50,711 nucleotides of DNA from the NCBI GenBank assembly GCA_046757025.1, contig JBHHXN010000017.1:1-50711 (forward strand), written 5' to 3'. Numbering within the stretch: position 1 is the first letter of the stretch; each line of letters begins with the position of its first letter. The translations under genes and the position numbers were made by a program. Of this stretch, positions 22,646 through 50,266 are shown one piece after another. This stretch comes from a bacterium. GTDB lineage: Bacteria > Zhuqueibacterota > Zhuqueibacteria > Oceanimicrobiales > Oceanimicrobiaceae. The notes below the pieces were generated by a model. That model was given only the letters and a program-made list of their open reading frames with translations, did not search any database and was not told where the DNA came from.

Positions 22646-22696
22646 CGGATTTTTGAATTTTTCCATGTTCTAATTCGGTTGTCCCAAAAGCACAGT

Positions 22697-22940: not shown

Positions 22941-23039
22941 TTAAATGGCTTTGGGAATTTTTTGCATTAAAATACAAAACAATACTTTTGTAATTTTTTA
23001 GCATGGTTCCTGGTTTAGCAGAATATTTATTATTTTAAT

Positions 23040-23190: not shown

Positions 23191-23192
23191 AT

Positions 23193-23246
23193 TAGTGATT
23201 GACCGAAAACGAGCATCTTCATGTGAGCGGAGTCGAAGCATGAAGA
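23193..23246. mobile_element. MITE family A-type end followed by a TGAGCGGAGTCGAAG hairpin
   Basis: TAGTGATTGACCGAAAAC matches the ends at 13632 and 42988; stem TCTTCATG/CATGAAGA. Confidence 0.55.
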
Positions 23247-23306
23247 CTGATGGAAAAATGGACTTTATCAACAGGATCATATATTTTTACTAGAGTAAAA
23301 TATGCC

Positions 23307-25607
23307 ATGAAAAAAATATTTTGTCTGTTCATCATAGTTAATCCTCTGACCATATTTTTGCTGTTGAACGAGCTCTTTCCCCTGCCCGCTGACAAGCTGC
23401 ATCCAACCGTTTCGACCATCATACTCGACCGAAATGACAACTTGCTGCGCGCTTTTCTGGCCGGGGATGACATGTGGCGGATTCCCGTTTCAGTCGATGA
23501 AATCTCCCCTACTCTTAAAAAAGCGGTCCTGACTTACGAAGATAAATATTTTTACAGGCATTTTGGCATCAACCCCATTTCGATAATCCGAGCTGCCAGG
23601 ACCAACCTGCGCTCCGGCCGCATTGTACAGGGCGGTTCCACCCTCACCATGCAGGTGGCGCGCCTGTTGGAGCCGAAATCCCGCTCCTATTTAAACAAGC
23701 TCAAAGAAGCCTTTCGGGCGCTGCAACTGGAATGGCGTTATTCCAAGGATGAAATTTTAGCGTTCTATTTCAACATGGCGCCCTACGGCGGCAACCTTGT
23801 GGGCGTAGGTGCGGCATCGTATGCTTATTTTAAAAAAAGCCCGGACAAGCTTAGTCTGGGAGAAGCGGCTATTCTGGCGGCGGTGCCCAATTCACCCAAC
23901 CGTTTTCGTGCAGATCGCTACCCAAACGCTGCCAAAGAGGCGCGTGCAAAAGTTCTGCGGTTGCTGCAACAGCAGAATCAGATCGACGCTCAGCAAAGAA
24001 AGGAAGCACAATCGGAGCCGGTGCCTGCCAAACGCTTTGCTTTGCCATTTGAAATCCCGCACCTGTCCACCGAACTGCACAAACGCCATCCTTTTCGACC
24101 GTGGCTGACGAGCACCATCGATCGGCAACTGCAGATCAAAGCCGAATCGATCTTACAGACGCATTTAAAACCGCTGCAAAAAAAAGGCATTTACAACGGG
24201 GCGGTGGTGATTATCGAAAACCGCACACACGAGGTGCTGGCCATGGTGGGATCACCGGATTTTTTCGATAACCAAAATCAAGGTCAGGTCAACGGCGCCA
24301 TGTCGCCCCGATCGCCGGGATCGGCGCTGAAGCCGTTTGTGTACGCGCTGGGACTGGAACAGGGAGTGATTTCGCCCAGCACCCTGCTCAAAGATGTGCC
24401 AGTGGAATACGCCGGCTACCGACCCGTCAACTACGACGAACGCTTTCACGGCGCCGTCAGTGTCCAGGAAGCGCTGGTGCATTCCCTGAACGTACCGGCG
24501 GTGAATCTTTATGCGGAGCTCGGTGACAACGGCGTTTACTCATTTTTAAAACGAGGGGGTATTTCCACGCTTCCCAAACCAAAAGAGTATTACGGTCTAT
24601 CACTGATTTTGGGTGGCGGCGAAGTGACCTTGTTAGAGCTAACCAATTTGTATGCCGGGTTAGCCAGCGGCGGTAATTTTACATCCTACCGTTTGTTGAA
24701 ATCCGATGCAGGGGAAGCGGAAAATACTTTGCTCAGTCCCGGAACCTGTTTTATTTTAACGGATATTCTGAGCCAGCTACGTCGGCCGGAGTTACCGGCG
24801 GTTTGGGAGTCCACGCTGGACATGCCGAAGGTAGCGTGGAAAACCGGCACTTCCTATGGCCACCGCGACGCCTGGAGCATCGGTTACACGCCGCAATTAA
24901 CCATCGGAGTATGGGTAGGCAATTTCGACGGCCGGGGGGTACCGGAGCTCGTCGGCGCAGAAGCCGCGGCGCCGATTTTGTTTGCGTTGTTTAACGCGCT
25001 GGAAGAGCGTGACAGCCACCGCTGGTTTGTGCAGCCTGAAAGCGTGGAGATGAGGCAAGTGTGCGCAGTCAGCGGCATGCCGGTCTCTCAAATTTGTGCT
25101 GCCGTCAAAAATGAGCTCTTTTTGCCGGGGGTTTCGCCAAATCAAACCTGCACCATCCATCAGCGCATTCTGGTGGATCGGAAAACCGGACAGCGTTTGT
25201 GCTCCCATTGCCGCATTGGCCGCACCTATTGGGAAAAAGTCATCGAACACTGGCCGGCCGAAATTAGTAGCTGGAAAATGCGCAACGGGCAACCGCTTGC
25301 ACCTTTCCCTGAACATTTTCAGAAATGCGTCAAAATCGCCTCGGGAGAAAAGCCGGTGATTCACTCACCGGCCATGAATACACAGTTTAAAATTCGTTCA
25401 GGCGTTAGTTTAAAATACCAGAAAATTCTACTGCAGGCGTCGGTTTCCAACCACACGCACACGATTTACTGGTTTATGAATGGACGGCTCATCTATTCCG
25501 GAGACCCGAACCACCCACTGTTCATCACACCACAAAAGGGCCGCCACACCCTGCTGTGTATGGACGAAGAAGGGCGATCTTCAGAAGTCGAGATAACCAT
25601 CAATTGA
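23307..25607 (+). CDS. pbpC: Penicillin-binding protein 1C
   Basis: Transglycosylase motifs EDKYFYRHFG and QGGSTLTMQVAR; transpeptidase SALK, SLN, KTGT; C-terminal Ig-like domain. Start at MKKIFCLF preferred because the longer start at 23250 lies next to the repeat remnant. Confidence 0.95.
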   Translation: MKKIFCLFIIVNPLTIFLLLNELFPLPADKLHPTVSTIILDRNDNLLRAFLAGDDMWRIPVSVDEISPTLKKAVLTYEDKYFYRHFGINPISIIRAARTNLRSGRIVQGGSTLTMQVARLLEPKSRSYLNKLKEAFRALQLEWRYSKDEILAFYFNMAPYGGNLVGVGAASYAYFKKSPDKLSLGEAAILAAVPNSPNRFRADRYPNAAKEARAKVLRLLQQQNQIDAQQRKEAQSEPVPAKRFALPFEIPHLSTELHKRHPFRPWLTSTIDRQLQIKAESILQTHLKPLQKKGIYNGAVVIIENRTHEVLAMVGSPDFFDNQNQGQVNGAMSPRSPGSALKPFVYALGLEQGVISPSTLLKDVPVEYAGYRPVNYDERFHGAVSVQEALVHSLNVPAVNLYAELGDNGVYSFLKRGGISTLPKPKEYYGLSLILGGGEVTLLELTNLYAGLASGGNFTSYRLLKSDAGEAENTLLSPGTCFILTDILSQLRRPELPAVWESTLDMPKVAWKTGTSYGHRDAWSIGYTPQLTIGVWVGNFDGRGVPELVGAEAAAPILFALFNALEERDSHRWFVQPESVEMRQVCAVSGMPVSQICAAVKNELFLPGVSPNQTCTIHQRILVDRKTGQRLCSHCRIGRTYWEKVIEHWPAEISSWKMRNGQPLAPFPEHFQKCVKIASGEKPVIHSPAMNTQFKIRSGVSLKYQKILLQASVSNHTHTIYWFMNGRLIYSGDPNHPLFITPQKGRHTLLCMDEEGRSSEVEITIN

Positions 25608-25916: not shown

Positions 25917-26684
25917 ATGGCAAAAAACTCAAAAGTAATGATCGAAACCAAAGGATTGAGCAAATTTTACGGTCCTTTTGTGGCCATCAAAGACATTACC
26001 TTTTCCATCACCGAGGGTCAGATCGTGGCGTTTTTAGGCCCCAACGGGGCGGGTAAATCCACCACCATGAAAATTCTCAGCGGATTCCTGGCGGCCAGTG
26101 AAGGTTCCGCTGCCATCGCGGGCTACGACGTCCGAAAAAACCGACTGGAGGTTTCCAGGAAATTGGGTTATTTACCCGAAAACGGGCCCCTCTACCAGAA
26201 TATGACGCCGCTGGATACGTTACAATTTTTTGGAGAAGCCCGCGGCATGGAACCCAATTTGCTATCCAAACGGCTGGACACGGTGATCGAGCAGTGCGCC
26301 CTGGAACTGGTGCTGGAAAAACCCATCGACAAGCTCTCGCGCGGCTACAAACAGCGGGTGGGATTGGCGCAGGCTCTGCTGCACGACCCGGACGTACTCA
26401 TCATGGACGAGCCCACCGCAGGATTGGATCCCAACCAGATTCGTGAATTTCGCGATAACATCAAAACGTTGAGCAAAACCAAAACCGTGCTGCTTTCCAC
26501 CCATATCCTGCAAGAAGTGGAAGCCGTGGCCGATCGGGTTTTGTTCATTCACAACGGCCAGCTCATTTTCGACGGCGCCACCGAAGATTTGAAAGAAAAC
26601 GGCTCCCTGGAAAAGCCTTTTTATCGCTTAACCAATCACGGTCGACCGATTAAAGTTGAATCTAAAAAGGAGGCGGTAGCATGA
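25917..26684 (+). CDS. ABC transporter ATP-binding protein (GldA-like)
   Basis: [27 protein letters not shown]. Confidence 0.95.
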
Positions 26685-29374
26685 ATCTAAATGTGAAAAA
26701 CATAGCTCCCAAAATCAATTTTAATGTCATTCAGTCCATCGTAAAAAGGGATCTGCGCATGTATTTCAGCAATCCCACGGGTTACGTTTTCATCACTTTG
26801 TTTATTTTCCTGAGCGCAGCAGCCGCTTTCTGGCAGTCGGGTTTTTTCAGGAACAATCTGGCAAACCTCGACCAGTTAAACATCCTGTTTCCTTATTTGC
26901 TGCTGTTTTTTGTCCCGGCCCTCACCATGGGCATCTGGGCTGAAGAACAAAAACAAGGTACGGACGAGCTGCTGCTGACCTTACCGGCCACAGACCTGGA
27001 AGTAGTTTTGGGTAAATACTTGGCCGCCCTGGGAATTTATTCCGCTTCGTTATTTTTGTCTCTCAGCCATATTCTCGTGCTGACCTGGCTCGGCAGTCCG
27101 GATATCGGACTGATGTTCGGCAACTACGTCGGCTACTGGTTGATCGGCGCGGCGCTGGTGGCGGTGGGGATGTTAGCTTCACTGCTTACCGCCAACATTA
27201 CCATCGCGTTTATTTTAGGCGCCATTTTTTGTTCGCTGTTTGTGTTCATCGATTCAGCGGCCTTTGTCATCAGCCAGGGTTTAAAAAATTTAGTGGACCC
27301 CATCGGTGTATTCGGGCATTTCGGAGATTTTGCCAGAGGCATCATCAGTTTTTCAGGTGTGCTGTATTTTCTTTCCGTGGCCGGGCTCATGCTCTATTTT
27401 AACGTGCTTATCATCGGGCGCCGGCACTGGCCGTTGGAAGCCGACGGTTTCAAAATGTGGGTACACCACACCATTCGTTCCGTGGCCATCGTGGCAGCGT
27501 TGATCAGTCTAAACGTCATTTTTCATTGGCCGACTTTCCGGCTGGACGTTACCGCAGAACAATTGCATTCGCTTTCCGATGAAACCAAAAAGTTGATCGA
27601 TGAAATACCTGACAACCGGCCGGTATTCGTGCAGGCTTTCATCAGCAAAGAAGTGCCGCAATCGTATGTTCAGACCCGTTCAAACCTCATCGGTACGTTA
27701 AAAGAAATCGATGCCGTAGCGGGTAACCGCGTGGAAGTGGTGATTTACGATACCGAACCATACACACAGGAAGCGCGCGATGCCCGGGAAAAATTTGGCA
27801 TTCGGCCGCAGGAGATTCCCAATTTGGCCGGCGCACAGGCCAGTTTTTCCAACGTGTTCCTGGGCGTGGCGTTTACCAGCGGTGCCGAAGAGCAGGTGAT
27901 TCCGTTCTTCGATCGCGGTTTGCCGGTGGAATACGAGCTCACCCGCAGCATCCGGGTGGTGGCCAAAACCAGCCGCAAAAAAATCGGTATGCTCAACACC
28001 GAAGCCAAACTGTTCGGCGGATTTGATTTTCAAACCATGCGCAGCAATCCGCCCTGGCCGGTGGTGGACGAGCTGAAAAAACAGTACGACGTTGAACAGG
28101 TGTCGGCTGCCGAACCCATCAACGAAGTTTACGATGCGTTGCTGGTGGCGCTGCCTTCCTCCCTGCCGCAAGAAGAAATGGACAATTTAAAAAAATACAT
28201 CGAAGCCGGGCACCCCACACTGTTTTTGGTTGATCCGCTGACCATCGTGAATGTGGGGCTCTCCCCTTCCGAAGAAAGCGGCGCCAACATCAATCCCTTC
28301 ATGCGGAATCAGGGACCGCGGCCCAAACCCAAGGGCAATATTCACAGCCTGCTGACCGACCTCGGAGTGAGCTGGAACAAGGCGCAAATCATCTGGGATA
28401 CCTACAATCCGCATCCCGATTTGGCGCATTTACAGCCGCAGATCGTTTTCGTCGGACACGGCAATCAAAATCCTGAATCGTTTAATCAAGAGCATAAAGG
28501 CAGTGCCGATTTACAGGAGCTGGTCTTTTTGTACCCGGGCAGCCTGCAAAAAGCCGCCAACAGCCATTTTGAATTCACGCCGCTGGTAAAATCCAGTCAG
28601 GTTTCGGGTTCACAGAATTACAGTCAACTGGTACAGCGTTCGTTTTTTGGCATTCAACTGGTGCAGCCGCGAATCCGATTGCGTCCCAACAGTCTGGATT
28701 ACATCATTGCCGCCCACATCAAAGGAGAATCGGTTCCGGAAGATTCCACCGAGAGTCCAAAGAGTGTCAACGCCATCGTCATCAGCGATCTGGATTTTAT
28801 TTCGCAGGAATTCTTTGAGATTCGGAAACGTGCCATCGGCAATCTCAATTTCGATAACGTGACTTTTTTCCTGAACTGCATCGATGTGTTGGTGGGCGAT
28901 GAATCGTTCATTTCACTCCGGAATAAACGAGTCAAACACCGAACCCTGGAAACGGTGGAAGAACAGAAGCGGCAATTCATGGAAAAAAGTCGACAAGAGG
29001 AACAGGAAGCGGAAGCGGAAGCCTCAAGAGCCCTGGCCGAAGCGCAGCAAAGACTCAATGAAAAAGTCGCAGAAGTGCGGCAGCGCACCGACCTCGACGA
29101 TCAGACCAAACAAATCATGGCCCGCAACCTGCAGGAAGTTGAAAACCGAAAATTTGAAGCGCTAAAAGCCAGTATCGAAGCCGAAAAAGAAGCCAAGATT
29201 CAGCGCAGTAAAGAAAACATGGAGTCGCAAATTCGCAGCATTCAGAGCAACATCAAAACCCTAGCGGTCCTGCTGCCGCCCATTCCGGTGTTTGCACTGG
29301 GCGTGATGATATTCGTACGCCGGCAAAAACGTGAAAAAGAAGGCGCGGCGGCAGCGCGAAGGCTGCGCAGTTAA
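26681..29374 (+). CDS. ABC-2 permease fused to a GldG-like domain (GldF-GldG-like)
   Basis: Multi-TM N-terminus with [51 protein letters not shown]-terminal coiled coil and TM; 4-nt overlap with the ATPase gene. Confidence 0.88.
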
Positions 29375-29492
29375 TAACTTTTTTGTGTTAAAAATACGAT
29401 AACAGATGACCATTTCTTGTACATCAAGAATTTCAAACATGAAACCCGTAATTGCAGATGACTTCTTGAATTTCAAATAATAGGAGTAGAGC

Positions 29493-30860
29493 ATGAACGA
29501 AACTCAAAAAACCATGATTTTTGGCGGCGCAGCGGTGCTGCTCGTCCTCATCGCTTTTTTGTTGAATTTGCCGTCGGGCGGCACACCCGAAGCCTTTTCG
29601 GACAAAGGGGAATATTTCTTTCCGGATTTCACCGATCCCAATGTCGCCACCACCCTGGAGGTGATCGATTTCGACAGCGAAACCGGTTCCGCGGTGCCAT
29701 TTAAAGTCACTTTTAAAAACGGTATCTGGACCATTCCCTCGCATCACGACTACCCTGCTGACGGCAAAGATCGCCTGGCGAAAACCGCTGCCGGCGTCAT
29801 CCGCATCAAGAAAGATGACTTCCGCACCGACAACGTGTCGGATCACGTAGCTTGCGGCGTGATCGATCCCCTGGATGAAACCGCTACCTCTTTAACCGGC
29901 CGCGGACAAAGAGTGACCATCAAAGGCCAGAACGATCAGATTTTAGCGGACTTTATCATCGGCAAAAAAATAGAGGGCCGGGATAAATTTCGTTTCGTGC
30001 GCATCCCCGGCCAAAAACGCGTGTACGCCTCCCGTATTGACATCGATATTTCAACCAAGTTCAGCGATTGGATCGAGGCGGATCTGATGAAGGTAACCAA
30101 AGCGGACATCAAGCAGGTGATCTTGAAAGACTATTCCATCAATGAGCGCACCGGCGTGGTGAATCAACGCGACGTGGTGGTACTCGACAAAGTGGATGAC
30201 AATTGGCAAGCGGACAAGACGCGCGACGACCAGGAGGTGGATAAAACCAAAATGGACGACCTGTTGAAGGCGGTGGACGAATTGTCCATCGTCGGGGTAC
30301 GGCCAAAGCCAGCCGGACTGTCACAAAATCTGACTAAAATGAGCGACGGCATCTCCATTACACAGGAAGCCGCGTTGTCTTTGCAAAGCAAGGGATATTA
30401 TTTCACCCGCGACGGCCAGCTGCTTTCCAATGAAGGTGAATTGCAAGCGCGCACAAAAGACGGCGTCACATACACGTTGAGATTTGGAGAAATCGTTTAT
30501 GGCTCCGGTCTGGCGGTCACCGCCGGCACCGACACCAGCGACACCGAGGGTCCGGGGGAAAATCGTTACCTGTTCATCACCACCGATTTTGATGGCAGCG
30601 AATTCACCGAACCACCCAAACCCAAAAACACCGACTTTCAGTCCAAACCAGATAGCTTGTGGACCGATGCCGATAAAGAAAACAAGAAGCTGCAGGATGA
30701 ACATGACAAATGGCAGAAGAAGATCGAAAAAGGCCAAAAGCTTTCGGACGATTTGAACGCACGCTTTGCTAACTGGTACTACGTCATCTCTGCCAACAGT
30801 TTCGACAAGCTGCATTTGAAACGCAAAGATCTGGTGAAGAAAAAAGAGAAAGGCACTTAG
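29493..30860 (+). CDS. DUF4340-type membrane-anchored protein
   Basis: N-terminal TM; WTIPSHHDYPAD; third gene of a GldA/FG-like operon, the usual DUF4340 position. Confidence 0.75.
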   Translation: MNETQKTMIFGGAAVLLVLIAFLLNLPSGGTPEAFSDKGEYFFPDFTDPNVATTLEVIDFDSETGSAVPFKVTFKNGIWTIPSHHDYPADGKDRLAKTAAGVIRIKKDDFRTDNVSDHVACGVIDPLDETATSLTGRGQRVTIKGQNDQILADFIIGKKIEGRDKFRFVRIPGQKRVYASRIDIDISTKFSDWIEADLMKVTKADIKQVILKDYSINERTGVVNQRDVVVLDKVDDNWQADKTRDDQEVDKTKMDDLLKAVDELSIVGVRPKPAGLSQNLTKMSDGISITQEAALSLQSKGYYFTRDGQLLSNEGELQARTKDGVTYTLRFGEIVYGSGLAVTAGTDTSDTEGPGENRYLFITTDFDGSEFTEPPKPKNTDFQSKPDSLWTDADKENKKLQDEHDKWQKKIEKGQKLSDDLNARFANWYYVISANSFDKLHLKRKDLVKKKEKGT

Positions 30861-30875
30861 AAGAACCTGTCTGTA

Positions 30876-30933
30876 TGACGGATTATTGCCTGTGGATGCA
30901 GCCTCGCCAACAGGCAATAATCAGTCACTTTTT
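30876..30933 (+). terminator. Long hairpin, probable terminator of the ABC operon
   Basis: TGACGGATTATTGCCTGT / ACAGGCAATAATCAGTCA stem (17/18) followed by CTTTTT. Confidence 0.55.
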
Positions 30934-31047
30934 GATTTGTTCGATTCCGCCTGTGTTTACTTCTTAAATCAACTGTCCGAAGAATAGCCATTTGCCTGGT
31001 AAAACATCTCACACAACTGGATTCTGCCTGCACACGTCGCAATTAGC

Positions 31048-31076
31048 TTGACATTCAAAACAGACTTTTGTAAGTT
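31048..31076 (+). promoter_or_regulatory. sigma70-type promoter
   Basis: TTGACA-N17-TAAGTT. Confidence 0.5.
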
Positions 31077-31122
31077 TTTGTTCATCGTTTATTTTAACTC
31101 TTGTTGAAAATAAGCAGAAGAA

Positions 31123-31704
31123 ATGAAAGTCAAAGAAACTTCGCCCGTTTATGCTACCTGCAAAAAGTCTTACACTTACCAGGACTATATCGACCTGCCG
31201 CAAGATGACAAACGATATGAAATATTGAACGGAGAGCTCAATATGGTTCCAGCTCCATCCACGTATCACCAGGATGTAAGCGGTAATTTAGAATTTGCGA
31301 TACGAAAATTTCTCGAAGCAAATCCTTTAGGTAAATTTTATGATGCGCCCGTCGATGTGGTACTGAGTGAAGAAATCGTGATCCAGCCAGACTTGTTATT
31401 TATCCGCTATGAAAATTCAAAAATCATTACTGAAAAAAATATATCCGGAGCGCTCGATTTAGTCGTGGAGATTCTGTCGCCGGCCTCCGCATATTACGAC
31501 CTCATCGAGAAAAAAGAAATCTACGAACAATTTGGCGTACAGGAATATTGGATCGTGGATCCCAAAAAGCAGTGGGTGGAAATCTATGAGAATAGCAAGA
31601 ACAAATTTGAGCTCGATCAGCGGCTTGAAAAGACCGGAACGCTGAAGTCACCGCTATTTGAATCTTTCCAGATTTCCCTGCCAGAAATCTTTGACACCAA
31701 TTAA
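31123..31704 (+). CDS. Uma2-family (DUF820) PD-(D/E)XK endonuclease-like protein
   Basis: RYEILNGEL, PAPSTYHQ, QPDLLFI, DLVVEILSP, KKEIYEQFGVQEYWIVDP. Confidence 0.93.
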   Translation: MKVKETSPVYATCKKSYTYQDYIDLPQDDKRYEILNGELNMVPAPSTYHQDVSGNLEFAIRKFLEANPLGKFYDAPVDVVLSEEIVIQPDLLFIRYENSKIITEKNISGALDLVVEILSPASAYYDLIEKKEIYEQFGVQEYWIVDPKKQWVEIYENSKNKFELDQRLEKTGTLKSPLFESFQISLPEIFDTN

Positions 31705-31734
31705 AAAAGCCCTGAATTCTTTCAGGGCTTTTTT
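31703..31734. terminator. Bidirectional intrinsic terminator
   Basis: A6-GCCCTGAA-TTCT-TTCAGGGC-T6 between convergent genes. Confidence 0.9.
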
Positions 31735-31757
31735 AGTTTCAAAACCAAATGGCTGAT

Positions 31758-34700
31758 TTATTTGACCAGCAACATTTTGCGTGAGATAGTTAATTTATCG
31801 GTTTCCATTCTCAGGAAGTAAATTCCCGCAGCTACTTGCTCACCGCGCTCATTGCGGCCATCCCACTGAACTTTGTACTCACCCGCCAGTCTGTGGCCAT
31901 CAAACAAGGACCGAATACGCTGACCCAGCAGGTTGTAAACATGCAATTGAATGGTTGCCGCTTGCGGCACGGTGTAATTGATAACCGTGCTCGGGTTAAA
32001 CGGATTCGGGTAGTTTTGCGCCAGTTGAAATCTCTCGGGCGCGCCAACAACTCCCGGCGATTCATCCACGTCGGTGAGCAGCCCGCCCAGATCAACCGCG
32101 GGCAGCTTGAAATCTTTACCCGTTGCCAGGCCCGGGCTGGTGACGGTTACCTGCATGGCTTCGCCCGGAACGTCCTGGAAAAACGGCAAAAGCGCCTGCG
32201 GATCACCGGCGAACAACAAATTTGCGAATATCGAAAACAAATCTAAATTCGCCAATTGCACTCCGACAAATTGATTGGGATTGTACCAGGCGTCGCCAAA
32301 CAACTGCACATCCAGCGAATCCAGAACGCTGTCATCGCCCAAAAGCAGAGCTATTATTGCGCTCAAAGGATCGCCACCGCCGTCATCTCCTAAATTGGCC
32401 TCATCTAATAAAAGTAGAAATCGAAACAGGGAAACGGTGCGAAGAAAATAATTCCCGGACACCAGTCCTGGAACGGCATAAGCGCCTGAAGTGGGATCAA
32501 GGCCACCGGAATTCAAATCCAGTCCGGCTAAGCCACCCGAAACAACGTGGCCGGATTCATCATAAGCGAGAACCAGTGTGCCCGGAATAGGGGTTTGCCC
32601 GTCTTCCTGATAAACCGCGCCCATGATCACACCCTGGCCTTGAGCTAAGGCAATGTCCGCGGTGGTGGTTCCGCCTGCCGCAACGTTTACTGTCACGGAA
32701 TTGGGATCATTAAACGATGTGCCGCCGCCATGATAAGTGGCTGCTAAATCTGGCGCGCCCACAAAAGCCTGAACTTTGTAATTTGCAGGCCACAAACCGA
32801 TAAGGCTGTATGTGCCAGTGGCAGAATCGGCATCCACAATACCGGCTACGGTTTGCGTAACTGCGTTGTAAGCCAGAACGGAGATTTCAAGCCCTAGCTC
32901 AGCGACATTTTGACCCGGCACCGAAACCGTACCGGCAATCGTACCCGTTCGCACCATTTTGAAATCGATATTTGGTGTGACAGTTGGGGCCGTCACTTGC
33001 ACCGAATCGGCGGACTCAAAACCTTTGCCATCATAAAATTGCGGTAAATAAAGAACATCGTCGCTGTCCACAAATCCAAACAGTTTAAAATAACCGGTGG
33101 GCAGAGGACGCAATTCATACGTGCCGTTGATGGAATCCGAAACCGCAAAGGTCAATTCAGGCAGGTTATTGGCGGCATTGAGCGCGATAACCGTACCGGT
33201 ACCGTTCACCGGTGTGGTACCGTCGCTGGCTTCCACAAACTTACCGTTGATGCCGCCCGCCAGGTCGAGCACGAAATTGATGCCGCCGGTGTTATCCGGC
33301 GAAGTGACGGAAACCGGTGTGGCCGAACCAGGATCATAAATACTTTGAACGTTGGGATAGTAAGCATCCAAGACTTCGCCGAAGTGCTTTCCGGTTCCCA
33401 ATTCATCACCGAAAAGTGACTGAAAATCTGGATTCAGCAGAGACACCGTGCGTAACACGTAATCGCCAGAGGAAAGACCTGACACAAAGTAGTTACCTGT
33501 GGTGTCAGAAAATCCAACGCCGAAATCGATGTCATCTGCAAAAAAACTGCCGACTTCATCAAAAGCAAATTTCTTCACTGCCACCACCACCACCGAGTCT
33601 AAAATGGCGCCGTTGGCATCGGTAATACGGCCGCTGATGGATCCGCCGGTTTCAAGATAAAAATCGATGCCGCGCAGGGTGTCGCTTTCAGCCAGCACCA
33701 ACGGGGTGGCGTCTGCCGATACTTTGGCGTCATCATAATATTCACCTTGTGTGGCGGGCGAACCCAGCAGAAAGCTCAAATAATTATTCGCATAAACCAC
33801 AAAGGTACCTTGATTCAACTCAGGGAGTTCATAAGAGCCGTCAAATCCCGAAATATTAAAAGTCGCGATGGAGGTGTCCTGGGTATCAAAAGCAAAAATA
33901 GCCGCAAAAAACAATGCCGTGGTATCGTCCGCTACTGTATCAATAAAATTGACCATTCCCTGAATGCTGGAATCGTTGGTCTGCAAAATATTGTTTTTCC
34001 GAATGTTCGAGTTTAAATCCGTCTCAGGATACAATCGATCGGTGATGCGGATACTTGCTTCGGTCTGCTGCTCACCGTCGAGATCAAAGGCAATGCCGTT
34101 GGTGGTTTCGCCATTTCGCACGGTCACCAACTGGGCGTTCTGCCAGCTTTCATACAGATTTGCCGCCAGGCTGTTTTCTTTCTCGAAGAATTTGTCTCGG
34201 TAGCGGCTGACCGTAACCAGATAGTAGCGGCCGGCCGGCATGTCGGAAAAAGTAAATTCCCCGGTCAGTTTTTCCACTTCAGCAGCGCCGGCAAAAAATC
34301 CGTATCGGTTAAAAGACAGCACCGTGATTTCCGCATCGGTTGCGCTCGAACCGCTCACCGAAACCACGCCGGCGATGTTTCCAGATGGTTTGCCTGCCAG
34401 CACGGCGCGTTTCTCATCCGACAACGATTGAAAAATAGCGCGCAACTGCAAACCCTCTTTTTCAGCTTCCACCAGCGCTTTGAGATAAGCATCGATTTTC
34501 ATTTCAGCCGGATACTGCCGCATTTTATGCTGATACAGCTCCTGGTACCTGAGTCGATTGACTTTGTTTTGTAAACGAGCCATCATCTCCTGATTTAGCC
34601 GGACCGCATCAAACTCACTGATCAAGATTTTGCCACTTGCCAGCTTTGAAATGACTTTTTGGATATTTTTTTCTCCAGCCATAAGTGGGAAAGAGCTGGT

Positions 34701-34790
34701 GGTTAAAAACAAACCCATCAAAAATACCGTAAAGCACAAACCAGTGATAACGGCTTTCTGATTCTTTGAAAAAAGTCCCATATTGTCCAT
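31758..34790 (-). CDS. Large secreted protein with tandem carboxypeptidase-regulatory-like beta-sandwich repeats and a FlgD-Ig/T9SS-type C-terminal domain
   Basis: AGGAGG RBS before the ATG at 34790; signal peptide; 6-7 repeats of G.I.G.V...G.Y....L..G.Y.L...YY...V.V...GI.F.L; tail LAQNYPNPFNPST...WDGRNERG...RKMLLVK. Confidence 0.85.
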   Translation of the reverse strand: MDNMGLFSKNQKAVITGLCFTVFLMGLFLTTSSFPLMAGEKNIQKVISKLASGKILISEFDAVRLNQEMMARLQNKVNRLRYQELYQHKMRQYPAEMKIDAYLKALVEAEKEGLQLRAIFQSLSDEKRAVLAGKPSGNIAGVVSVSGSSATDAEITVLSFNRYGFFAGAAEVEKLTGEFTFSDMPAGRYYLVTVSRYRDKFFEKENSLAANLYESWQNAQLVTVRNGETTNGIAFDLDGEQQTEASIRITDRLYPETDLNSNIRKNNILQTNDSSIQGMVNFIDTVADDTTALFFAAIFAFDTQDTSIATFNISGFDGSYELPELNQGTFVVYANNYLSFLLGSPATQGEYYDDAKVSADATPLVLAESDTLRGIDFYLETGGSISGRITDANGAILDSVVVVAVKKFAFDEVGSFFADDIDFGVGFSDTTGNYFVSGLSSGDYVLRTVSLLNPDFQSLFGDELGTGKHFGEVLDAYYPNVQSIYDPGSATPVSVTSPDNTGGINFVLDLAGGINGKFVEASDGTTPVNGTGTVIALNAANNLPELTFAVSDSINGTYELRPLPTGYFKLFGFVDSDDVLYLPQFYDGKGFESADSVQVTAPTVTPNIDFKMVRTGTIAGTVSVPGQNVAELGLEISVLAYNAVTQTVAGIVDADSATGTYSLIGLWPANYKVQAFVGAPDLAATYHGGGTSFNDPNSVTVNVAAGGTTTADIALAQGQGVIMGAVYQEDGQTPIPGTLVLAYDESGHVVSGGLAGLDLNSGGLDPTSGAYAVPGLVSGNYFLRTVSLFRFLLLLDEANLGDDGGGDPLSAIIALLLGDDSVLDSLDVQLFGDAWYNPNQFVGVQLANLDLFSIFANLLFAGDPQALLPFFQDVPGEAMQVTVTSPGLATGKDFKLPAVDLGGLLTDVDESPGVVGAPERFQLAQNYPNPFNPSTVINYTVPQAATIQLHVYNLLGQRIRSLFDGHRLAGEYKVQWDGRNERGEQVAAGIYFLRMETDKLTISRKMLLVK

Positions 34791-34886
34791 TTTGCCTCCT
34801 TTCACTTTCAATAATAAAATATGGTTTAATTATTGGTTGATTAATTACACCTTTTGAAGAATTGAGTAATGGGGGTTAAAAAAACC

Positions 34887-42987: not shown

Positions 42988-43169
42988 TAGTGATTGAATG
43001 AAAACGATCCTATCTTTCCGAAGGCTTCCAGGCCGAGGATGAATTCCTGCCGGGCGCGGAGGACCTGTCCTGAGCTTTGTCGAAGGGCCTGTCCTGAGCT
43101 TTGCCAAAGGAACACCTTCGCGAAGAGGTTTTAAAATCGCGCATTTCACGAGTTGTCATTCAGACTCTA
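42988..43169. mobile_element. MITE family A, filled copy with a 2 x 24-bp hairpin insert (43064-43111)
   Basis: Terminal inverted repeats TAGTGATTGAATGAAAAC / GTTGTCATTCAGACTCTA; 182 bp = 134 + 48. Confidence 0.78.
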
Positions 43170-43899: not shown

Positions 43900-46800
43900 A
43901 TGCAAAAAACAATCGGTTATTTTTTGATGGCAACACTCGTGCTTTTTGCGGGTGGCTTTTTAACCAACGGTAACGCGCAGCCTAATCTCATCCCTCCCGT
44001 CGTTCACGGTCCCGACACGCTGGTGGGCACCGGCAACATTGAAGTTTTCGAGTTTTTCACTCAAACCGACACCCTCTGGAAAGGCGATATCGGCGGCATC
44101 GCTGCCGGCGACAGTTACTGGGTTTACATCGTCGGAATCGACGCTTCCGGTTTGACCGGACCCAATGGCCAGCAAATCCAGTTCAATCTTCAGGATGCCG
44201 CGGACAATTCGACATTCAAACATCTAGGCATCAGTTTCTCTTTAAGCAATCCCGATGCCGGGGGAGGGGGTTTGTTAGAATGCTACCAATCCCTGGGAAA
44301 CGAAGGGTTGTCCACACAGGGTTTGGCGCCCGGCATTCTAACCGCCGATAAATTCGACCTGCGTTTTAAATTCAAAAAAACTATCCAGGACACGGGCTGG
44401 ACTGTCACGCCTTACTACCGCCTGAGCGGCGGCGATTGGATTGTATTTTTTGACGGCACCTTCACCGCCAGCATTGCCTTTGACTTCCTCGGCGCTAAGC
44501 TGATCGTCCGATTTGATAATCCCATCGGCGCCCCGGCGCAAGGCACTTTAACCTTCGATAACTATTTCGTGTTGGGTCCTTTAAACCAACCCATTACGAA
44601 AACGTTTGTGGATGACGACTGGTCGAATCTGGAGCTTGGCGACGCCGTGCAATTTCCGGGACAGGACAGCAGTATCCAGGTGTTTGGCGTCAACGCCTTT
44701 GCCTCCATTCAGGAAGGATTAAACGGTGCGTTCGAGGTGCAGAACCTCTCAGTAAAATCGGATTACCGTTTAGCCTCGGAGACGTCTGTTATCGACACAG
44801 TCTGGGTGGCCGCCGGCACCTACAATGAAAATATCATCATCGACAAATGCGTCACCCTCATCGGCGCGGGCAACGGCGAGAACCCGTTGTTGAATACCGT
44901 CATCAACTCACAAACCGATGACTTTCCCGTAATTTTAATCGACGGGATCAATGGCGGCGGAACCTCCCCAACCGACCGATTGAGCATTCGCGATCTGCGC
45001 GTGCAAGGAGCCAATGCCGCGTCCGGTTCTCCTGATGTGAGCAGCGGGATTCTCATTACCAACGGCCCCATTCCTTCTGTAAATTTTGCTAAAAATGTCA
45101 TCGGCACAGCACCTGTACCCAACACCGCTCCTGGCGATTCCACCGGCTTTATCACTTTCGAGAACGTGACCGCCACGAATAATTCGGGCTGTGGAATAAC
45201 CATGCAGCATTCCGGAGTTGTGCACGATATCGAAGTAATAAATTGCACGCTATCGAACAACCAGGACAGCGGCATTCGTATTCCTTCCACGCTCAGTGCC
45301 TTTGACAGCTTGTTCGTCACCGACGGCAGTGTGGATGAAAACGGTGTCGGCGGCATCATCGTCAATTTTCTGAATATTAATCCAAATAATATTTTAGCGC
45401 AAACAAACGACCAGGAGAGCTCGAAAAACACGATAATCCAAGGCCCGAGCTATAACAACATCCACGTCAATGGCACAACCTTTTCCGGTAACGGCACGAG
45501 CATCATGATGGCTCTGGGCTCCGGCGACATCGGTTTGTACGATTTTAATGGCGACGCTTCCTTTACCAACGTCAGCATCACCGGCGACACTTCCCAATAT
45601 GGCATTCTTCTGGAAGGCCAGGTGACGTCGGCTACGTCCCCTTCTGGCACGGTCACCTTCAACAATGTGCAGATTGACGGCGTCTATCAAACGCAGAGCG
45701 TCAATAACAACAAGGCCGCTAGGCTGCAGCAGCCCCCGATCATGTACGTGGGTGCCGGCTTGCACATCGCCGACTACAGCGATGTAACAGCCATCAGTTT
45801 CAGCGGTGTGCAGCTCGATGTGCTGCCAGCTTCTACGGAAGATCCCGCAGTCAACCTGTTCCTTTATGACGTGGATGGCACCATGAATCTGGGAAACACC
45901 ACCTTTGGCGGCCAGGCCACCGAAGACATTCGCAACTTTGCCGCTGTGGACATCGATGCCACATCGGCTGACTTCACCAATTCCGGAGGCGACAATTTTG
46001 CCATCGAAGACCGCGTCGTTCACATCATCGATCTGGAGCAATTGTCGCCAAGTAATCATTTCGAGCCGATCAGTGGCCAAAGCCCCCAGCTCAACTCGGG
46101 CGCGCAGATCGGTCTGGTGACCTGGGTGGCAGACAATGTGTATATGACCAAGATCAGTTTTTTTCCACCCGACACCTCCGCCAGCATACAGCGCGCCATC
46201 AACGCCGCTGCCACCAGCGATACGTTAAACATCGGTACCGGCACTTTTTTTGATGGCCCACAAATCTTAATCGACAAAAACCTGGTGATCGCCGGCTCTG
46301 GAAAATCCAACACCACGTTTAAACCCACCGCACCCACCAGCGACGTGGGAGAAGGCCGCGCGTGGTTTTTGGTGGATACGCTGCTAACCGTGGAAGTGCA
46401 GGACATGACGTTCGATGCAAAAGACAGTTTGATTTACTACGCCTTTTATGTCAAAGGTCAGGGTACGTTTTCAAATGTGTGTTTCAATGAAATTAAATAC
46501 AACGAGAGCGGCCCGGATTACGCCGGCAGCGCCATCTATGCGGCCGGCAACGGTCCCGTGCACGTATCAAACAGCGTGTTCACGGAAATAGGCCGAACCG
46601 GTGTGATTTATTCCGGCAGCGGCGTAAACGGCTCCGTTTTTCAAAAAAATCATTACACCGGGAAAGGCGCGGGCACCTGGCTCGACTACACCCTCGATAT
46701 CGGCGCTGGCGCCAACGTGCAAGTGAAAAACGACACCATCAGCGCAAATCGTGGTGTTGTTAGTACAGACTCATCTGCTGGCATATTAATGGCAACCTCC

Positions 46801-48369
46801 TCAGGAGCCGGAACAAATGTTACCGTCACACAAAATGAAATATCCGATTGCATCAACGCCATCCTGGTGGGACTTGACGGTACGGACCAATCCTTCACGC
46901 TCATTCAAAATAACGACTTACACGACAACGACTACGCAGTAAATGCCCGCTCCGGTCTGTTTATCAAAGTGGAAAACAATCAGATCTACAATCAATCGGT
47001 CGCCGGCGTGAAATTGGACTCGGTCACGGCTTACGACATCGACAACAACGATATCTTTGACAACGCCGATGCCGTGCTCATATCCAAGTCGTTTGGCGAG
47101 CTGGACAACAACATCATCTACGACAATACCAACAACGGCTTAACCGTTTTAGATGAAACCAGTACCGGCGTCACCGTTCACAATAACGAGTTCTGCAACA
47201 ACACCATTTACGCTATTGAAAATAAGGGCAGCACCACCATCGATGCCACCCTGAACTGGTGGGGTGCCGCCGACGGTCCCGACGGCGCCGGCAGCGGCTC
47301 CGGAGACAGCGTCAGTGTTGGTGTGGACTTTTCATCGTTTGTCACCAGCCCGCTGTTCCAGGATTCTCCCTGCACCGAGCCCGTGCAGTGTTTGAGCGAC
47401 GGCGACGTGAACAACGACGGCTCGCTGACACCCGGTGATGCTTTGTGCGCATTTCAGACGTTTTTGAACGGCGGCGTTCTGGCCACCGAATGCGACGTGG
47501 TGGATTTCAGCTGCGAAATCGTCGCTGCCGATGCCAATTGTGATGAATCGGTGACCCCCGGCGATGCTTTGGCCATTTTCCAGGGTTTTCTGGACAGCAC
47601 GCCGCCGGCTCATTGTTTTGCGGCGGTGAGCGATAACAAGCTGGCGCAACTAAGTTCAAAAATACCGCCGTTCAAACTCGTTTGGAACCAGAAAACCATG
47701 AATCCTGCAACCGAACAGGATAAACGTGAAAAGATCGTGGTATCGCTGGCCCTCGAAAAACCCGCCGCGCTGCACGCCTTTGGCTTGCGGCTGCATTTTC
47801 CAGCAGACCAGCTTGAATTTCTGAGCGTGGAACGCACATCGCTGACTAGCAATTGGACACAGCTCGACGCGCAACGGATCGAACCCGGATTGCTGGTCAT
47901 CGGCGGATTTGACGCCAAAGACCGCAAACCCAATTCGGATACAGAGATTTTGAACATCGTCTTTTTGCACAAAGCGAAATCTGAAGGCGATTTAACCATT
48001 CACGTCACCGAGCTCACCGACGATCTGGCCAATGCGGCGTTGGAGCCGTTGACCCTCGAATCGGCGAACGCGTTGCCAACTTCGTTCCAGCTACATCAGA
48101 ACTTCCCCAACCCTTTCAATCCGGAAACGCAAATTCAATTTGAGATTCCAGCGACCCAAAATGGCAAAGTAGCGGTGGTGCTGGCCATTTACAACATGAC
48201 CGGGCAACTGGTCACCAAATTAATCGATGAAGAAAAATCAGCGGGCGTCTATAAAATAAAATGGGACGGTAAGAATGCTGCCGGAATTCGTGTACCATCA
48301 GGAACTTACTTCTACAGTATCATCGCCGGTGAATTTAAAGACACTAAAAAGATGCTGTTGTTGAAATAA
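43900..48369 (+). CDS. Large secreted protein: parallel beta-helix modules + dockerin + cohesin-like domain + FlgD-Ig/T9SS-type tail
   Basis: GAGGAGG RBS; signal peptide; beta-helix caps ASIQ...VAAGTYNENIIIDK.VTLIG and ASIQRAIN...IDKNLVIAG; NWWG; duplicated Ca-loop dockerin at 47401-47595; LHQNFPNPFNPET...KKMLLLK. Confidence 0.88.
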   Translation: MQKTIGYFLMATLVLFAGGFLTNGNAQPNLIPPVVHGPDTLVGTGNIEVFEFFTQTDTLWKGDIGGIAAGDSYWVYIVGIDASGLTGPNGQQIQFNLQDAADNSTFKHLGISFSLSNPDAGGGGLLECYQSLGNEGLSTQGLAPGILTADKFDLRFKFKKTIQDTGWTVTPYYRLSGGDWIVFFDGTFTASIAFDFLGAKLIVRFDNPIGAPAQGTLTFDNYFVLGPLNQPITKTFVDDDWSNLELGDAVQFPGQDSSIQVFGVNAFASIQEGLNGAFEVQNLSVKSDYRLASETSVIDTVWVAAGTYNENIIIDKCVTLIGAGNGENPLLNTVINSQTDDFPVILIDGINGGGTSPTDRLSIRDLRVQGANAASGSPDVSSGILITNGPIPSVNFAKNVIGTAPVPNTAPGDSTGFITFENVTATNNSGCGITMQHSGVVHDIEVINCTLSNNQDSGIRIPSTLSAFDSLFVTDGSVDENGVGGIIVNFLNINPNNILAQTNDQESSKNTIIQGPSYNNIHVNGTTFSGNGTSIMMALGSGDIGLYDFNGDASFTNVSITGDTSQYGILLEGQVTSATSPSGTVTFNNVQIDGVYQTQSVNNNKAARLQQPPIMYVGAGLHIADYSDVTAISFSGVQLDVLPASTEDPAVNLFLYDVDGTMNLGNTTFGGQATEDIRNFAAVDIDATSADFTNSGGDNFAIEDRVVHIIDLEQLSPSNHFEPISGQSPQLNSGAQIGLVTWVADNVYMTKISFFPPDTSASIQRAINAAATSDTLNIGTGTFFDGPQILIDKNLVIAGSGKSNTTFKPTAPTSDVGEGRAWFLVDTLLTVEVQDMTFDAKDSLIYYAFYVKGQGTFSNVCFNEIKYNESGPDYAGSAIYAAGNGPVHVSNSVFTEIGRTGVIYSGSGVNGSVFQKNHYTGKGAGTWLDYTLDIGAGANVQVKNDTISANRGVVSTDSSAGILMATSSGAGTNVTVTQNEISDCINAILVGLDGTDQSFTLIQNNDLHDNDYAVNARSGLFIKVENNQIYNQSVAGVKLDSVTAYDIDNNDIFDNADAVLISKSFGELDNNIIYDNTNNGLTVLDETSTGVTVHNNEFCNNTIYAIENKGSTTIDATLNWWGAADGPDGAGSGSGDSVSVGVDFSSFVTSPLFQDSPCTEPVQCLSDGDVNNDGSLTPGDALCAFQTFLNGGVLATECDVVDFSCEIVAADANCDESVTPGDALAIFQGFLDSTPPAHCFAAVSDNKLAQLSSKIPPFKLVWNQKTMNPATEQDKREKIVVSLALEKPAALHAFGLRLHFPADQLEFLSVERTSLTSNWTQLDAQRIEPGLLVIGGFDAKDRKPNSDTEILNIVFLHKAKSEGDLTIHVTELTDDLANAALEPLTLESANALPTSFQLHQNFPNPFNPETQIQFEIPATQNGKVAVVLAIYNMTGQLVTKLIDEEKSAGVYKIKWDGKNAAGIRVPSGTYFYSIIAGEFKDTKKMLLLK

Positions 48370-48422
48370 CCGAGCCAACATTTGAATTTGCAGAACGTGA
48401 TCAAATTAAGGAGAATAAGGAA

Positions 48423-49463
48423 ATGCAGAAAATAATTAAAAATGCGGTACTTTTGGTTTTTAGTCTGATTTTTGTGACTCAGGCGGTGGGACAATTGGAT
48501 CTCAGTCCGCCATCCAACGTCGATGTCACCGACCCGCCGGGGCAAACCATCGTCATTCCGTTAAATTTAACCAACGGCAGCGCAGTCGCCATCGACGCAT
48601 TTGGTGTGACATTCACCTATCCCACTGATAAACTCACATTTAGCAAGATACTCAGCACCGGTACTCTGACGGATGGCTGGCAATCTGTCGGCGGCCAGGA
48701 AAACACTTCAGGGGAAATTACAATCGGTGGATTTAACGCCTCGCCTACCACAACATCCGGTGTACTTGTAAATGTAGAATTTATCATCGATACCACACCA
48801 GGAGTCGGTTTACTGCAGTTAGGCACCTTTATCGACGATCTGGCAAACGCTTCCACCACGCCTGGCATTCTCAACAGCTCGGTCCCTGTGGAGCTGACTT
48901 CCTTTTCCGCAGAAATTCTGAGCAACGCGGTGAAACTCAACTGGCTGACCGCTTCCGAAACCAACAATTTCGGCTTTGAGATCGAAAAGAGCTTCGACGA
49001 CATCGTGTACGAAAAAATCGGCTTTGTGAACGGACACGGCACCACCACCTCGCCGCAGCGATACCGTTTTGAAGATCAAAAATTAAATTTCGCCAAAAAG
49101 CTGCGCTACTATCGATTAAAACAGATCGACACCGACGGTTCGTTTGAGTACTCTGGTTCCTTGAAAGTCACGCTGGCACCACCAGACAATTTCGTATTGC
49201 AGCAAAACTATCCCAATCCCTTCAACCCGGAAACCAGCATCGGCTACCAGCTACCCAAATCCACCCGGGTGAAGCTGGTGATCTTCAACCTCATCGGGCA
49301 GGAAATTCGCAACCTGGTGGACTCGGTGGAACCAGCGGGATTTCACAAAATTATCTGGAATGGTAAAGATAATTTTGGCAGAGAAGTTCCCAGCGGCACT
49401 TACATTTACCAGCTCAAAACCGCGGAATTCACCGGCGTCAAAAAAATGACGCTGCTCAGATAA
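48423..49463 (+). CDS. Secreted cohesin-like + Ig/FN3-like + FlgD-Ig/T9SS-tail protein
   Basis: Signal peptide; cohesin-like AFG..YP..LTF...IGGF...DDLANA; PVELTSF...W.TASETNNFGFEIE; QNYPNPFNP tail. Confidence 0.88.
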   Translation: MQKIIKNAVLLVFSLIFVTQAVGQLDLSPPSNVDVTDPPGQTIVIPLNLTNGSAVAIDAFGVTFTYPTDKLTFSKILSTGTLTDGWQSVGGQENTSGEITIGGFNASPTTTSGVLVNVEFIIDTTPGVGLLQLGTFIDDLANASTTPGILNSSVPVELTSFSAEILSNAVKLNWLTASETNNFGFEIEKSFDDIVYEKIGFVNGHGTTTSPQRYRFEDQKLNFAKKLRYYRLKQIDTDGSFEYSGSLKVTLAPPDNFVLQQNYPNPFNPETSIGYQLPKSTRVKLVIFNLIGQEIRNLVDSVEPAGFHKIIWNGKDNFGREVPSGTYIYQLKTAEFTGVKKMTLLR

Positions 49464-49495
49464 TTTTAACAGGGACGTTAACACAGGAAGTTTTC

Positions 49496-50266
49496 ATGAT
49501 CAAAAGACTTTTAAGCATTTCCATATTCTGCTTGTGGGCGGGTGCGGCGAGTCAGGTCTGGAGTCAGCTCGATCTCAGTCCGCCCGCTATGATTAACCTG
49601 AGCACACTAAATGACACCACCGTCGCCATTCCCTTAAACTTGCAGAACCCCGACTCCAACGCCATCAAAGCTTTCGGGCTGCGAATCATTTATCCGACGC
49701 AGCTTTTGACCTTTAAACACACCGACAACGCCAACACCCTGACCGATGGCTGGATCACCGCCAAGGGTCAGGAAAACGAGCCCGGTGTCATCGTCGTTGG
49801 CGGGTTTAACACCACGGCCATCACCGCATCGGGCGTTTTGATGAAGGTGGTATTTGCTGTGACCGGCACCGTGGGTTCGGATACCCTAAAACTCACCAAC
49901 TTTGCCGACGACCTGGCCGAAGCCACCACCACAGACGGAGCCGTTTTCCACCTGTTTACTTCAGTTGAGAACGCACCCGAAACGCCCGGCCAGTTTGCGC
50001 TTTTGCCAAACTACCCGAATCCCTTCAATCCGCGGACCACCATCCGCTACTTCCTGCCCAGAACTGCGCAGGTGGAATTGAAAATTTTCAACATGGTGGG
50101 TCAGCCCATCAGGACGTTAGTGGAGGCTGAACAACCAGCGGGTTTACAATCCGTGGTGTGGGATGGTAAAAATGACCGGGGTGAAGGGGTAAGCAGCGGT
50201 GCTTATTTTTACAAAATCGTGGCAGATGATTTCACGAAAATTAGGCGGCTTCTTTTTTTGAAATAA
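49496..50266 (+). CDS. Secreted cohesin-like + FlgD-Ig/T9SS-tail protein
   Basis: Paralogous to the previous gene (QLDLSPP, IPLNL.N, AFG, TLTDGW, GQEN, GGFN, DDLA); NYPNPFNP tail. Confidence 0.88.
   Translation: MIKRLLSISIFCLWAGAASQVWSQLDLSPPAMINLSTLNDTTVAIPLNLQNPDSNAIKAFGLRIIYPTQLLTFKHTDNANTLTDGWITAKGQENEPGVIVVGGFNTTAITASGVLMKVVFAVTGTVGSDTLKLTNFADDLAEATTTDGAVFHLFTSVENAPETPGQFALLPNYPNPFNPRTTIRYFLPRTAQVELKIFNMVGQPIRTLVEAEQPAGLQSVVWDGKNDRGEGVSSGAYFYKIVADDFTKIRRLLFLK

Follow-up and report, generated by a model that had tools for sequence, protein, structure and literature searches.

A 50,711-nt stretch of contig JBHHXN010000017.1 (assembly GCA_046757025.1, phylum Zhuqueibacterota; positions 1 to 50,711, forward strand; here called the window) carries three adjacent genes, A, B, and C, whose products each contain a cohesin domain and end in a sorting tail. 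A additionally contains a dockerin, directly followed by its own cohesin, which we term cohesin'. On balance, we consider it probable, with some reserve, that the dockerin of A is capped by cohesin' and that B and C are surface sockets which catch the dockerin after export once the cap has been displaced or cut. The genome that contains the locus (G000 in our labelling) comprises 5.96 Mb and is 94.8% complete.

The repeated domain is a cohesin. In an alignment of the three copies, AFG, P, L-x-F, LT..W, G, GGF, and DDLA.A are invariant. An earlier sequence-only reading of the window had described three co-oriented sorting-tail proteins with a paralogous domain, which is correct, but gave the domain about 100 aa, while it spans about 125–130 aa. 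Among 36,480 six-frame open reading frames (ORFs) of the genome, the three copies match only each other (E 1e-7 to 1e-26). The Pfam cohesin family PF00963 recognizes B (26.2 bits) and C (24.4 bits), narrowly over the cut-off of 24.1; the copy of A was undetected in the Pfam scan. A structural model of the A dockerin and cohesin was compared with 48,161 PDB representatives (VIA), with Foldseek in addition. The first 20 VIA hits are without exception cohesins, at Z from 13.3 down to 9.8, ahead of pilin and adhesin immunoglobulin (Ig) folds at Z ≤ 9.5. The best match aligns 128 residues at a root-mean-square deviation (rmsd) of 2.8, and Foldseek agrees with the assignment. The cohesin identity proposed by the sequence-only reading is thus upheld, and a non-cohesin Ig or carbohydrate-binding fold, which would have spoken against it, was not the outcome of the fold search. 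For B and C, the identity rests on homology, as B modelled without an alignment reached a predicted local distance difference test score (pLDDT) of 28.9.

The duplicated dockerin motif is found in A only, directly before its own cohesin as previously proposed, with 14 of 22 positions identical between the repeats. On PF00404, the module scores 13.2 bits (E 0.1), under the cut-off of 22.9, so the dockerin assignment of the earlier reading failed at the level of Pfam and held at the level of fold. In the fold comparison, residues 3–84 of the model align with two dockerin chains, 8ajy_D (74 positions at rmsd 2.9, Z 8.2) and 4fl4_A (68 positions at rmsd 3.0, Z 7.8), Z values which are middling for a small domain, and helices are modelled at residues 17–28 and 59–70. 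The A dockerin has invariant Asp residues in the Ca loops, symmetric TPGDA repeats, and six cysteines at 95–100% conservation, which probably form disulphides. By sequence, the A dockerin is a divergent subfamily relative to PF00404.

The tails are of the TIGR04183/FlgD-Ig type, as had been recognized before. TIGR04183 is over its cut-off of 23 in all three proteins (A 35.6, B 29.8, C 36.1 bits), and PF13860 matches each of them. The tail motif of A is NFPNPFNP and not NYPNPFNP as first reported. Such tails are commonplace in this genome (161 ORFs by motif, 184 by profile).

Dockerin-cohesin' cassettes and the predicted cap

[quoted passage not shown] A profile of the A-type dockerin has matches in 29 of 167 genomes of the phylum, patchily over seven families, and related cassettes occur in records labelled candidate division KSB1, Krumholzibacteriia, and Latescibacteria. 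The neighbourhoods of all 66 dockerin matches were examined, and 111 distinct proteins were classified by architecture. The commonest are Coh-Doc-Coh'-CTD (32), Coh-(X)-CTD (22), Doc-Coh'-CTD (20), and Coh3-Doc-Coh'-CTD (8). Pfam scanning of 51 of the 76 passengers gave S8, C1, M14, and M64 peptidases, CotH, beta-helices, propellers, VWA, PA14, and CBM9, and no glycoside hydrolase (GH) family. A sequence search of the PDB gave nothing significant for the cassette or for the cohesin profile (best E 0.17).

Six modules cut by contig ends were set aside, leaving 70 complete dockerin modules. Sixty-three of these are arranged as Doc-Coh'-CTD, one has a shortened tail, and six are protein-terminal without Coh' or CTD; a dockerin directly on a CTD occurs in none of the 70. 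Two orthologous FG-GAP proteins (46% identity) differ in this part: the G002 protein (L072:4375-7242) ends in Coh-Doc-Coh'-CTD and the G011 protein (L107:7029-9575) in Coh-X-CTD. Hence, in this pair, dockerin and cap are present or absent together.

In a library of 1.84 billion proteins, the cassette profile found 389 clusters at E ≤ 1e-30. For look-alikes in the Atlas, the small number of taxon records points to Latescibacterota, Fidelibacterota, Poribacteria, Zixiibacteriota, and Bacteroidota. A second dockerin subfamily is present in 88 of the 167 genomes. A cohesin was detected downstream of it in 19 of 20 parsed test loci (3 of 23 unparsed), and the 19 loci with the CTD in view have a cohesin-sized gap of 135–150 aa before the CTD. 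In G008, the second subfamily forms the same A-B-C gene order. Some 20 proteins (P0069, P0071, P0089, P0101, P0105, and others) read Coh-Doc-Coh-Coh with no sorting tail, and P0044 contains five cohesins and ends in a hydrophobic stretch with basic residues behind it, resembling a membrane anchor. One complete cassette (L036:1056-3614) lies on a contig titled Thermoplasmatota archaeon; its cohesin' groups with those of G047, so mis-binning is likely.

The cohesins fall into two classes. In a quick IQ-TREE maximum likelihood tree (174 cohesins, 127 columns; rows below 70 bits and four tail-only rows excluded), a branch with 95% support in the Shimodaira–Hasegawa-like approximate likelihood ratio test (SH-aLRT) separates all 69 post-dockerin cohesins from 103 of the 105 free, pre-dockerin, and scaffold cohesins, with B and C among the latter. 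One of the two exceptions is cut by a contig end. Within the tree set, there is practically no cohesin' without a dockerin in front of it. AFG, GG, and DD are retained in both classes, at 89% or more in the post-dockerin class; from the anatomy of cohesins, we take these residues to lie on the dockerin-binding face.

The dockerin and cohesin' of A were modelled with AlphaFold2 as a single construct of 229 aa, using an alignment of 66 relatives. The model has a pLDDT of 93.2 and a predicted template modelling score (pTM) of 0.90, which cannot stem from one domain alone because the larger domain is only 58% of the chain. The linker, which has about 19 residues, allows closure in the model (pLDDT 77–87). 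The model favours occupation of the A dockerin by its own cohesin in cis over head-to-tail polymers. Self-polymerization, which the sequence-only reading had also considered, is hence not favoured, given this confident cis model and the separate grouping of post-dockerin cohesins behind dockerins.

Partners, tail processing, and competing explanations

Capture of the A dockerin by B and C is plausible on indirect, genomic grounds. Acceptor-class cohesins, i.e., those of the class of B and C, occur in 27 of 29 genomes with an A-type dockerin vs 4 of 138 others (E < 1e-20). A has orthologues in four other genomes (three full-length at 45% identity, one partial), and in all four a B orthologue lies directly downstream. 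The TPGDA pairs of these four dockerins read SGQD/SAAD, TALD/TALD, SADD/GAQD, and TPQD/TPQD, and the AFG of B reads AVT, AVT, AIK, and AFK in the same genomes; AFG/GG changed alongside the PG pairs of the dockerin. A cohesin gene without an A-type dockerin adjoins 15 of 75 dockerin genes on the same strand, and three tail-less S8-peptidase-dockerin genes (two of them Pfam-scanned) are located directly upstream of Coh3-Doc-Coh'-CTD genes. Complex prediction for the A dockerin with the B cohesin, made without control folds, scored 0.15 and 0.11 (mark 0.32) and counts neither way.

In one family, the acceptor (type-1) cohesin is fused to the second dockerin type, as in an adaptor scaffoldin, which suggests two orthogonal specificities in one genome. 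Such adaptor-like proteins, encoded at L078:2083-3756, L082:12707-14815, and L085:8547-10226, combine a type-1 acceptor cohesin with a dockerin of type 2, to which a domain the size of a cohesin and a CTD are joined. In another class of the phylum (G065 and G066), genes at L118:6132-12860 and L119:4084-10805 encode scaffoldin-like proteins of 2243 aa with eight cohesins alternating with Fn3-like domains, and this gene adjoins one for a dockerin-bearing CTD protein.

In the genome of the locus, the A-type dockerin occurs once, which leaves one client and two sockets. A complex here would be a 1:1 pair and not a multi-enzyme complex. Three other ORFs over the PF00404 cut-off (C71:21719-23422, C98:179-1816, and C45:12867-13988) encode a different kind of dockerin, two N-terminal and one C-terminal, without a sorting tail; their partner is possibly the one further, distant cohesin of the genome, on C144.

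[quoted passage not shown] The core genes expected on this basis were found for SprA (over cut-off), PorU (843.8 vs a cut-off of 420 bits), and the PorV family (25 matches, 17 over cut-off), but GldK stayed below cut-off; two C25 peptidases are also encoded. The expanded PorV shuttle set, the two C25 peptidases, and the weak GldK possibly belong to a variant T9SS.

Processing of A was considered at the linker and at the tail. Counted from the final cysteine of the dockerin, position +8 is a Lys in 28% of 68 linkers, compared with 0–9% at other offsets, and A has a Lys at this peak position. Of 62 Doc-Coh' linkers, 18 contain a hydrophobic-x-Lys motif; at the Coh'-CTD junctions, it is present in 3 of 62. 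It recurs in the second subfamily (9/20 vs 41/1132 background windows) and in new cassettes (31/100 vs 39/4172), the background windows being mostly folded domains and not linkers. Before the tail, Thr-[SGAD]-[VI] is found in 58 of 149 ordinary cargo proteins of the genome vs 217 of 4061 background windows; it is present in C, but only in 14 of 62 cassettes (p 0.026). On ordinary cargo, a narrower motif gave a null result (3/154 vs 47/1940), and the wider one occurred in 11 of 91 proteins that lack the Thr motif and in 3 of the 58 that have it (p 0.25). According to passages of PMC11969387, the cleavage sites mapped for Prevotella intermedia include T/SLE and T/GIN as well as one K/GVT, which is possibly tryptic. 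The lysine motif suggests cleavage in the linker as a lead, not as a result.

In the T9SS, cargo leaves by way of SprA; the tail is taken off by PorU, which can also anchor the protein. In the capped-dockerin reading, A, B, and C would be co-expressed and exported, and the dockerin is predicted to fold onto cohesin' in cis, which would stop it from pairing with B or C in the shared periplasm. Outside the cell, C (cut at Thr-Ser-Val) and B would become anchored single sockets. The cohesin'-tail unit would be removed at or near the linker lysine or be out-competed, and the freed dockerin would bind one of the two sockets, B or C, so that the beta-helix passenger would be held at the surface in a 1:1 pair; removal and rebinding form the weakest step.

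Several observations weigh against this capped-dockerin reading. The pTM reports a confident arrangement of domains and is not evidence of a canonical cohesin-dockerin interface, and a domain-swapped dimer would give an alignment-based predictor the same signal. A has neither the strict linker lysine motif nor the junction Thr motif, and both are likewise missing from 30 of 62 cassettes and from 57 in the new set of 100. The lysine motif may be structural, since the model shows a helical linker, and it was first noticed in these same linkers. Mutual exclusion of the linker lysine and junction Thr motifs, seen in the first set (none with both, p 0.006), was rejected, as 4 of the 100 new cassettes have both (p 0.77) and 2 of 20 second-subfamily cases break it as well. 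About 20 proteins of unrecorded taxon have Doc-Coh-Coh without a CTD; hence, the cap is not tied to T9SS export. On the side of the partners, co-occurrence may reflect operon linkage, and kin genomes are not independent. G012 (95% complete) has a cassette and no acceptor cohesin was found in it, whereas G011 and G018 (96–97% complete) have an acceptor cohesin and no A-type dockerin was found; acceptor-like cohesins without this dockerin are also present in G020 and G162. The concerted change of the dockerin and B motifs, being confined to one clade, is about one event. Finally, GldK reaches at best 79.4 bits (cut-off 350) in a genome which is 94.8% complete, and GldM had no match there, although control genomes matched nowhere either.

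As one alternative, the dockerin and cohesin' could be a structural dyad that stays closed for good and acts as a mechanical clasp, or as a spacer ahead of the tail; B and C would then be independent surface Ig-like proteins which do not bind A. The confident cis model and the near-universal Doc-Coh' adjacency agree with such a dyad, as do the G012 cassette without an acceptor and the G011 orthologue, which lacks the Doc and Coh' of the G002 protein and keeps the upstream cohesin. We regard the dyad as unlikely because six complete proteins end in a bare dockerin, mature C would be a cohesin alone, acceptor cohesins track the dockerin across seven families, the motifs of B changed together with the A dockerin, and adaptor-like proteins join a type-1 cohesin to a type-2 dockerin. 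Alternatively, cohesin' may be an ordinary acceptor and bind the dockerin of a second copy of A. This would produce head-to-tail chains or a lattice, in which B and C anchor or terminate the chains. The conserved AFG/GG/DD of cohesin', the blindness of an alignment-based model to cis vs domain-swapped contacts, and the tail-less Coh-Doc-Coh-Coh proteins fit this polymer. It is nonetheless improbable, since the short linker is modelled as closure-compatible, a tethered partner should out-compete a free one, and cohesin' is essentially absent away from dockerins.

The cap might also stay in place. A two-fold symmetric dockerin could use one repeat to hold cohesin' and the second to hold B or C; otherwise, pairing could occur in the periplasm for co-export. 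The repeats are symmetric (TPGDA/TPGDA, 14 of 22 identical) and change together in relatives, the strict linker motif is missing from most cassettes, and tail-less dockerin proteins adjoin tailed scaffolds, all of which is in line with a retained cap. In type I cohesin-dockerin complexes, the two binding modes use overlapping surfaces, which counts against it, and so does the conservation of the linker lysine motif in two dockerin subfamilies; we hence consider a retained cap quite unlikely. Very improbable is a repeated domain of non-cohesin Ig or carbohydrate-binding fold, next to a "dockerin" that is only a Ca-binding EF-hand-like repeat. It would account for the PF00404 score of A below the cut-off and for the lack of a significant PDB sequence match, but PF00963 is over the cut-off in B and C, the top 20 structural matches are all cohesins, and dockerin chains match the N-terminal module, so this explanation is largely refuted.

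A wider proposal built on the capped dockerin is a pro-dockerin checkpoint, which we put forward tentatively and hold to be possible but doubtful. KSB1 and other uncultured phyla associated with the Fibrobacteres–Chlorobi–Bacteroidetes (FCB) group would make dockerins with a dedicated cohesin cap in a long cleavable secretion tail. Only outside the cell would the cut at the conserved lysine motif arm the dockerin. There, single sockets, adaptors, and multi-cohesin scaffolds, with two orthogonal cohesin-dockerin specificities, would assemble into a surface layer that is programmable and non-cellulolytic.

Cohesin-dockerin pairs count among the strongest fasteners made of protein and have found wide use in engineered enzyme display; the known ones pair on meeting. 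If the dockerin is indeed capped and armed by proteolysis or exchange after secretion, this would explain how plug and socket can fold in one periplasm without jamming the secretion pore. It would also give biotechnology a fastener that can be switched and reveal the way in which abundant uncultured bacteria organize their surface. If there is no cap mechanism, the locus adds a further non-cellulosomal cohesin-dockerin pair to those known.

Gene layout and surroundings

Table 1 Features of the locus (positions refer to the window)
Feature	Position	Strand	Description
Gene A	43900-48369	+	1489 aa: signal-like N-terminus, N-terminal domain, passenger with right-handed beta-helix, dockerin, cohesin' (predicted cap), sorting tail
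Passenger of A (aa 27-1161)	43978-47382	+	Beta-helix: PF13229 66.3 bits, PF05048 29.9 bits
Dockerin module of A	47383-47622	+	Two Ca-loop/helix repeats (GDVNND...TPGDA; ADANCD...TPGDA), six conserved cysteines
Dockerin-cap linker of A	47623-47673	+	Lys1247 (47638-47640), 8 residues past the last dockerin cysteine; putative processing site
Post-dockerin cohesin' of A, predicted cis cap	47674-48069	+	AlphaFold model, cohesin fold, tree group
Sorting tail of A, T9SS type-A-like/FlgD-Ig	48085-48366	+	TIGR04183 35.6 bits, PF13860 40 bits
Gene B	48423-49463	+	346 aa; acceptor-class cohesin 48507-48884, extra domain about 48873-49196, sorting tail
Gene C	49496-50266	+	256 aa; acceptor-class cohesin 49580-49951, Thr-Ser-Val cleavage-like motif 49958-49966, sorting tail

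The three genes have the same orientation and are separated by 53 bp (A-B) and 32 bp (B-C). A purine-rich stretch precedes each start, and all three N-termini look like signal peptides by eye. A scan for promoters and terminators remained at chance level (13 vs 8.5 ± 3.0; 11 vs 10.1 ± 4.0). For the N-terminal domain of A (aa 27–232), the Atlas returned unassigned or weak leads only, and the passenger had no sequence match in a PDB search. Its beta-helix suggests binding of polysaccharides or other carbohydrates, or adhesion. The extra domain of B, about 105 aa between cohesin and tail and of the PVELTSF...YYRLKQID type, is shared with seven other ORFs of the genome.

Upstream of A, a short repeat at 43064-43110 has two tandem copies; its relaxed motif occurs 98 times in the genome, similar to repetitive extragenic palindromic (REP) elements. 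Further upstream, the window encodes a bacterial alpha-2-macroglobulin followed by penicillin-binding protein 1C, a familiar pair (17174-25607). The region 25917-34811 contains genes for an ABC ATPase, a GldF/GldG-like fused permease, and DUF4340, and then a minus-strand gene for a sorting-tail protein of 1017 aa.

Relation to known systems

The closest cellulosomal relatives are clostridial and ruminococcal pairs (PF00963, PF00404; PDB 5nrk, 3ul4, 8ajy). The likeness lies in the folds (cohesin Z 13.3, dockerin Z 8.2) and in the adaptor- and scaffold-like architectures of relatives. In contrast to those pairs, identity to the top cohesin matches is only 9–18%, the dockerin has six conserved cysteines, no GH family was found in 51 passengers, the tails are of T9SS type, a downstream cohesin is built in, and there are one client and two sockets. 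A cellulosome is defined, in the relevant passage of PMC13487519, by a scaffoldin with at least two cohesins and a dockerin-fused glycoside hydrolase. B and C have one cohesin each and A has no GH domain; the locus works like a cohesin-dockerin tether and falls outside that definition. With the non-cellulosomal cohesin of Archaeoglobus fulgidus (PDB 2xdh), it shares the fold (Z 12.6) and parent proteins which are mostly non-cellulolytic. Unlike other non-cellulosomal cohesins and dockerins, it has a recurring dockerin-cohesin'-CTD cassette and a distinct acceptor class.

As for T9SS type A cargo, the TIGR04183 tails and SprA/PorU/PorV agree, and Thr-[SGAD]-[VI] resembles the T/SLE and T/GIN sites of Prevotella intermedia (passages of PMC11969387). 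Such cargo has been proposed to fold in the periplasm before export, with PorU cutting the CTD (passages of PMC10202324). A possible difference from this system lies in GldK below its cut-off and GldM without a match (control genomes matched nowhere either). The proposed removal of a whole cohesin plus CTD is without counterpart in the passages of PMC11969387 and PMC10202324, where "long" CTDs have 69–82 aa.

A term search of the main text of the Zhuqueibacterota phylum paper (PMC11683472) found no cohesin or dockerin, and for the terms searched, a 2025 cellulosome review (PMC12484212) gave no passage on such a dockerin cap. Our literature search, with most subscription journals and supplements outside its coverage, found no paper on a cis-capped dockerin or on cohesin-dockerin pairs in KSB1.

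The nearest proposal is that for Ca. Stygibacter (Cloacimonadota), for which a cellulosome-like complex of a CTD-anchored cohesin scaffold and dockerin enzymes was proposed in silico (Williams et al. 2021, PMC8542988, where a "planctosome" is also cited). According to passages of that paper, the two cases share cohesin and dockerin in an uncultured lineage, peptidase clients, a CTD on the cohesin protein as the proposed anchor, and their purely in silico basis. They differ in that the Ca. Stygibacter scaffoldin is a multi-cohesin protein of 3,755 aa with carbohydrate-binding modules (CBMs), and its enzymes have C-terminal dockerins. Here, the sockets have single cohesins, and behind the dockerin come a cohesin of its own and a CTD; those passages describe no such cap. 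A CTD-anchored cohesin-dockerin complex in a diderm lineage has already been proposed (PMC8542988, as far as these passages go), and what our analysis adds is the split into cap and acceptor cohesins, the cis model, the architecture rule, and the linker motif.

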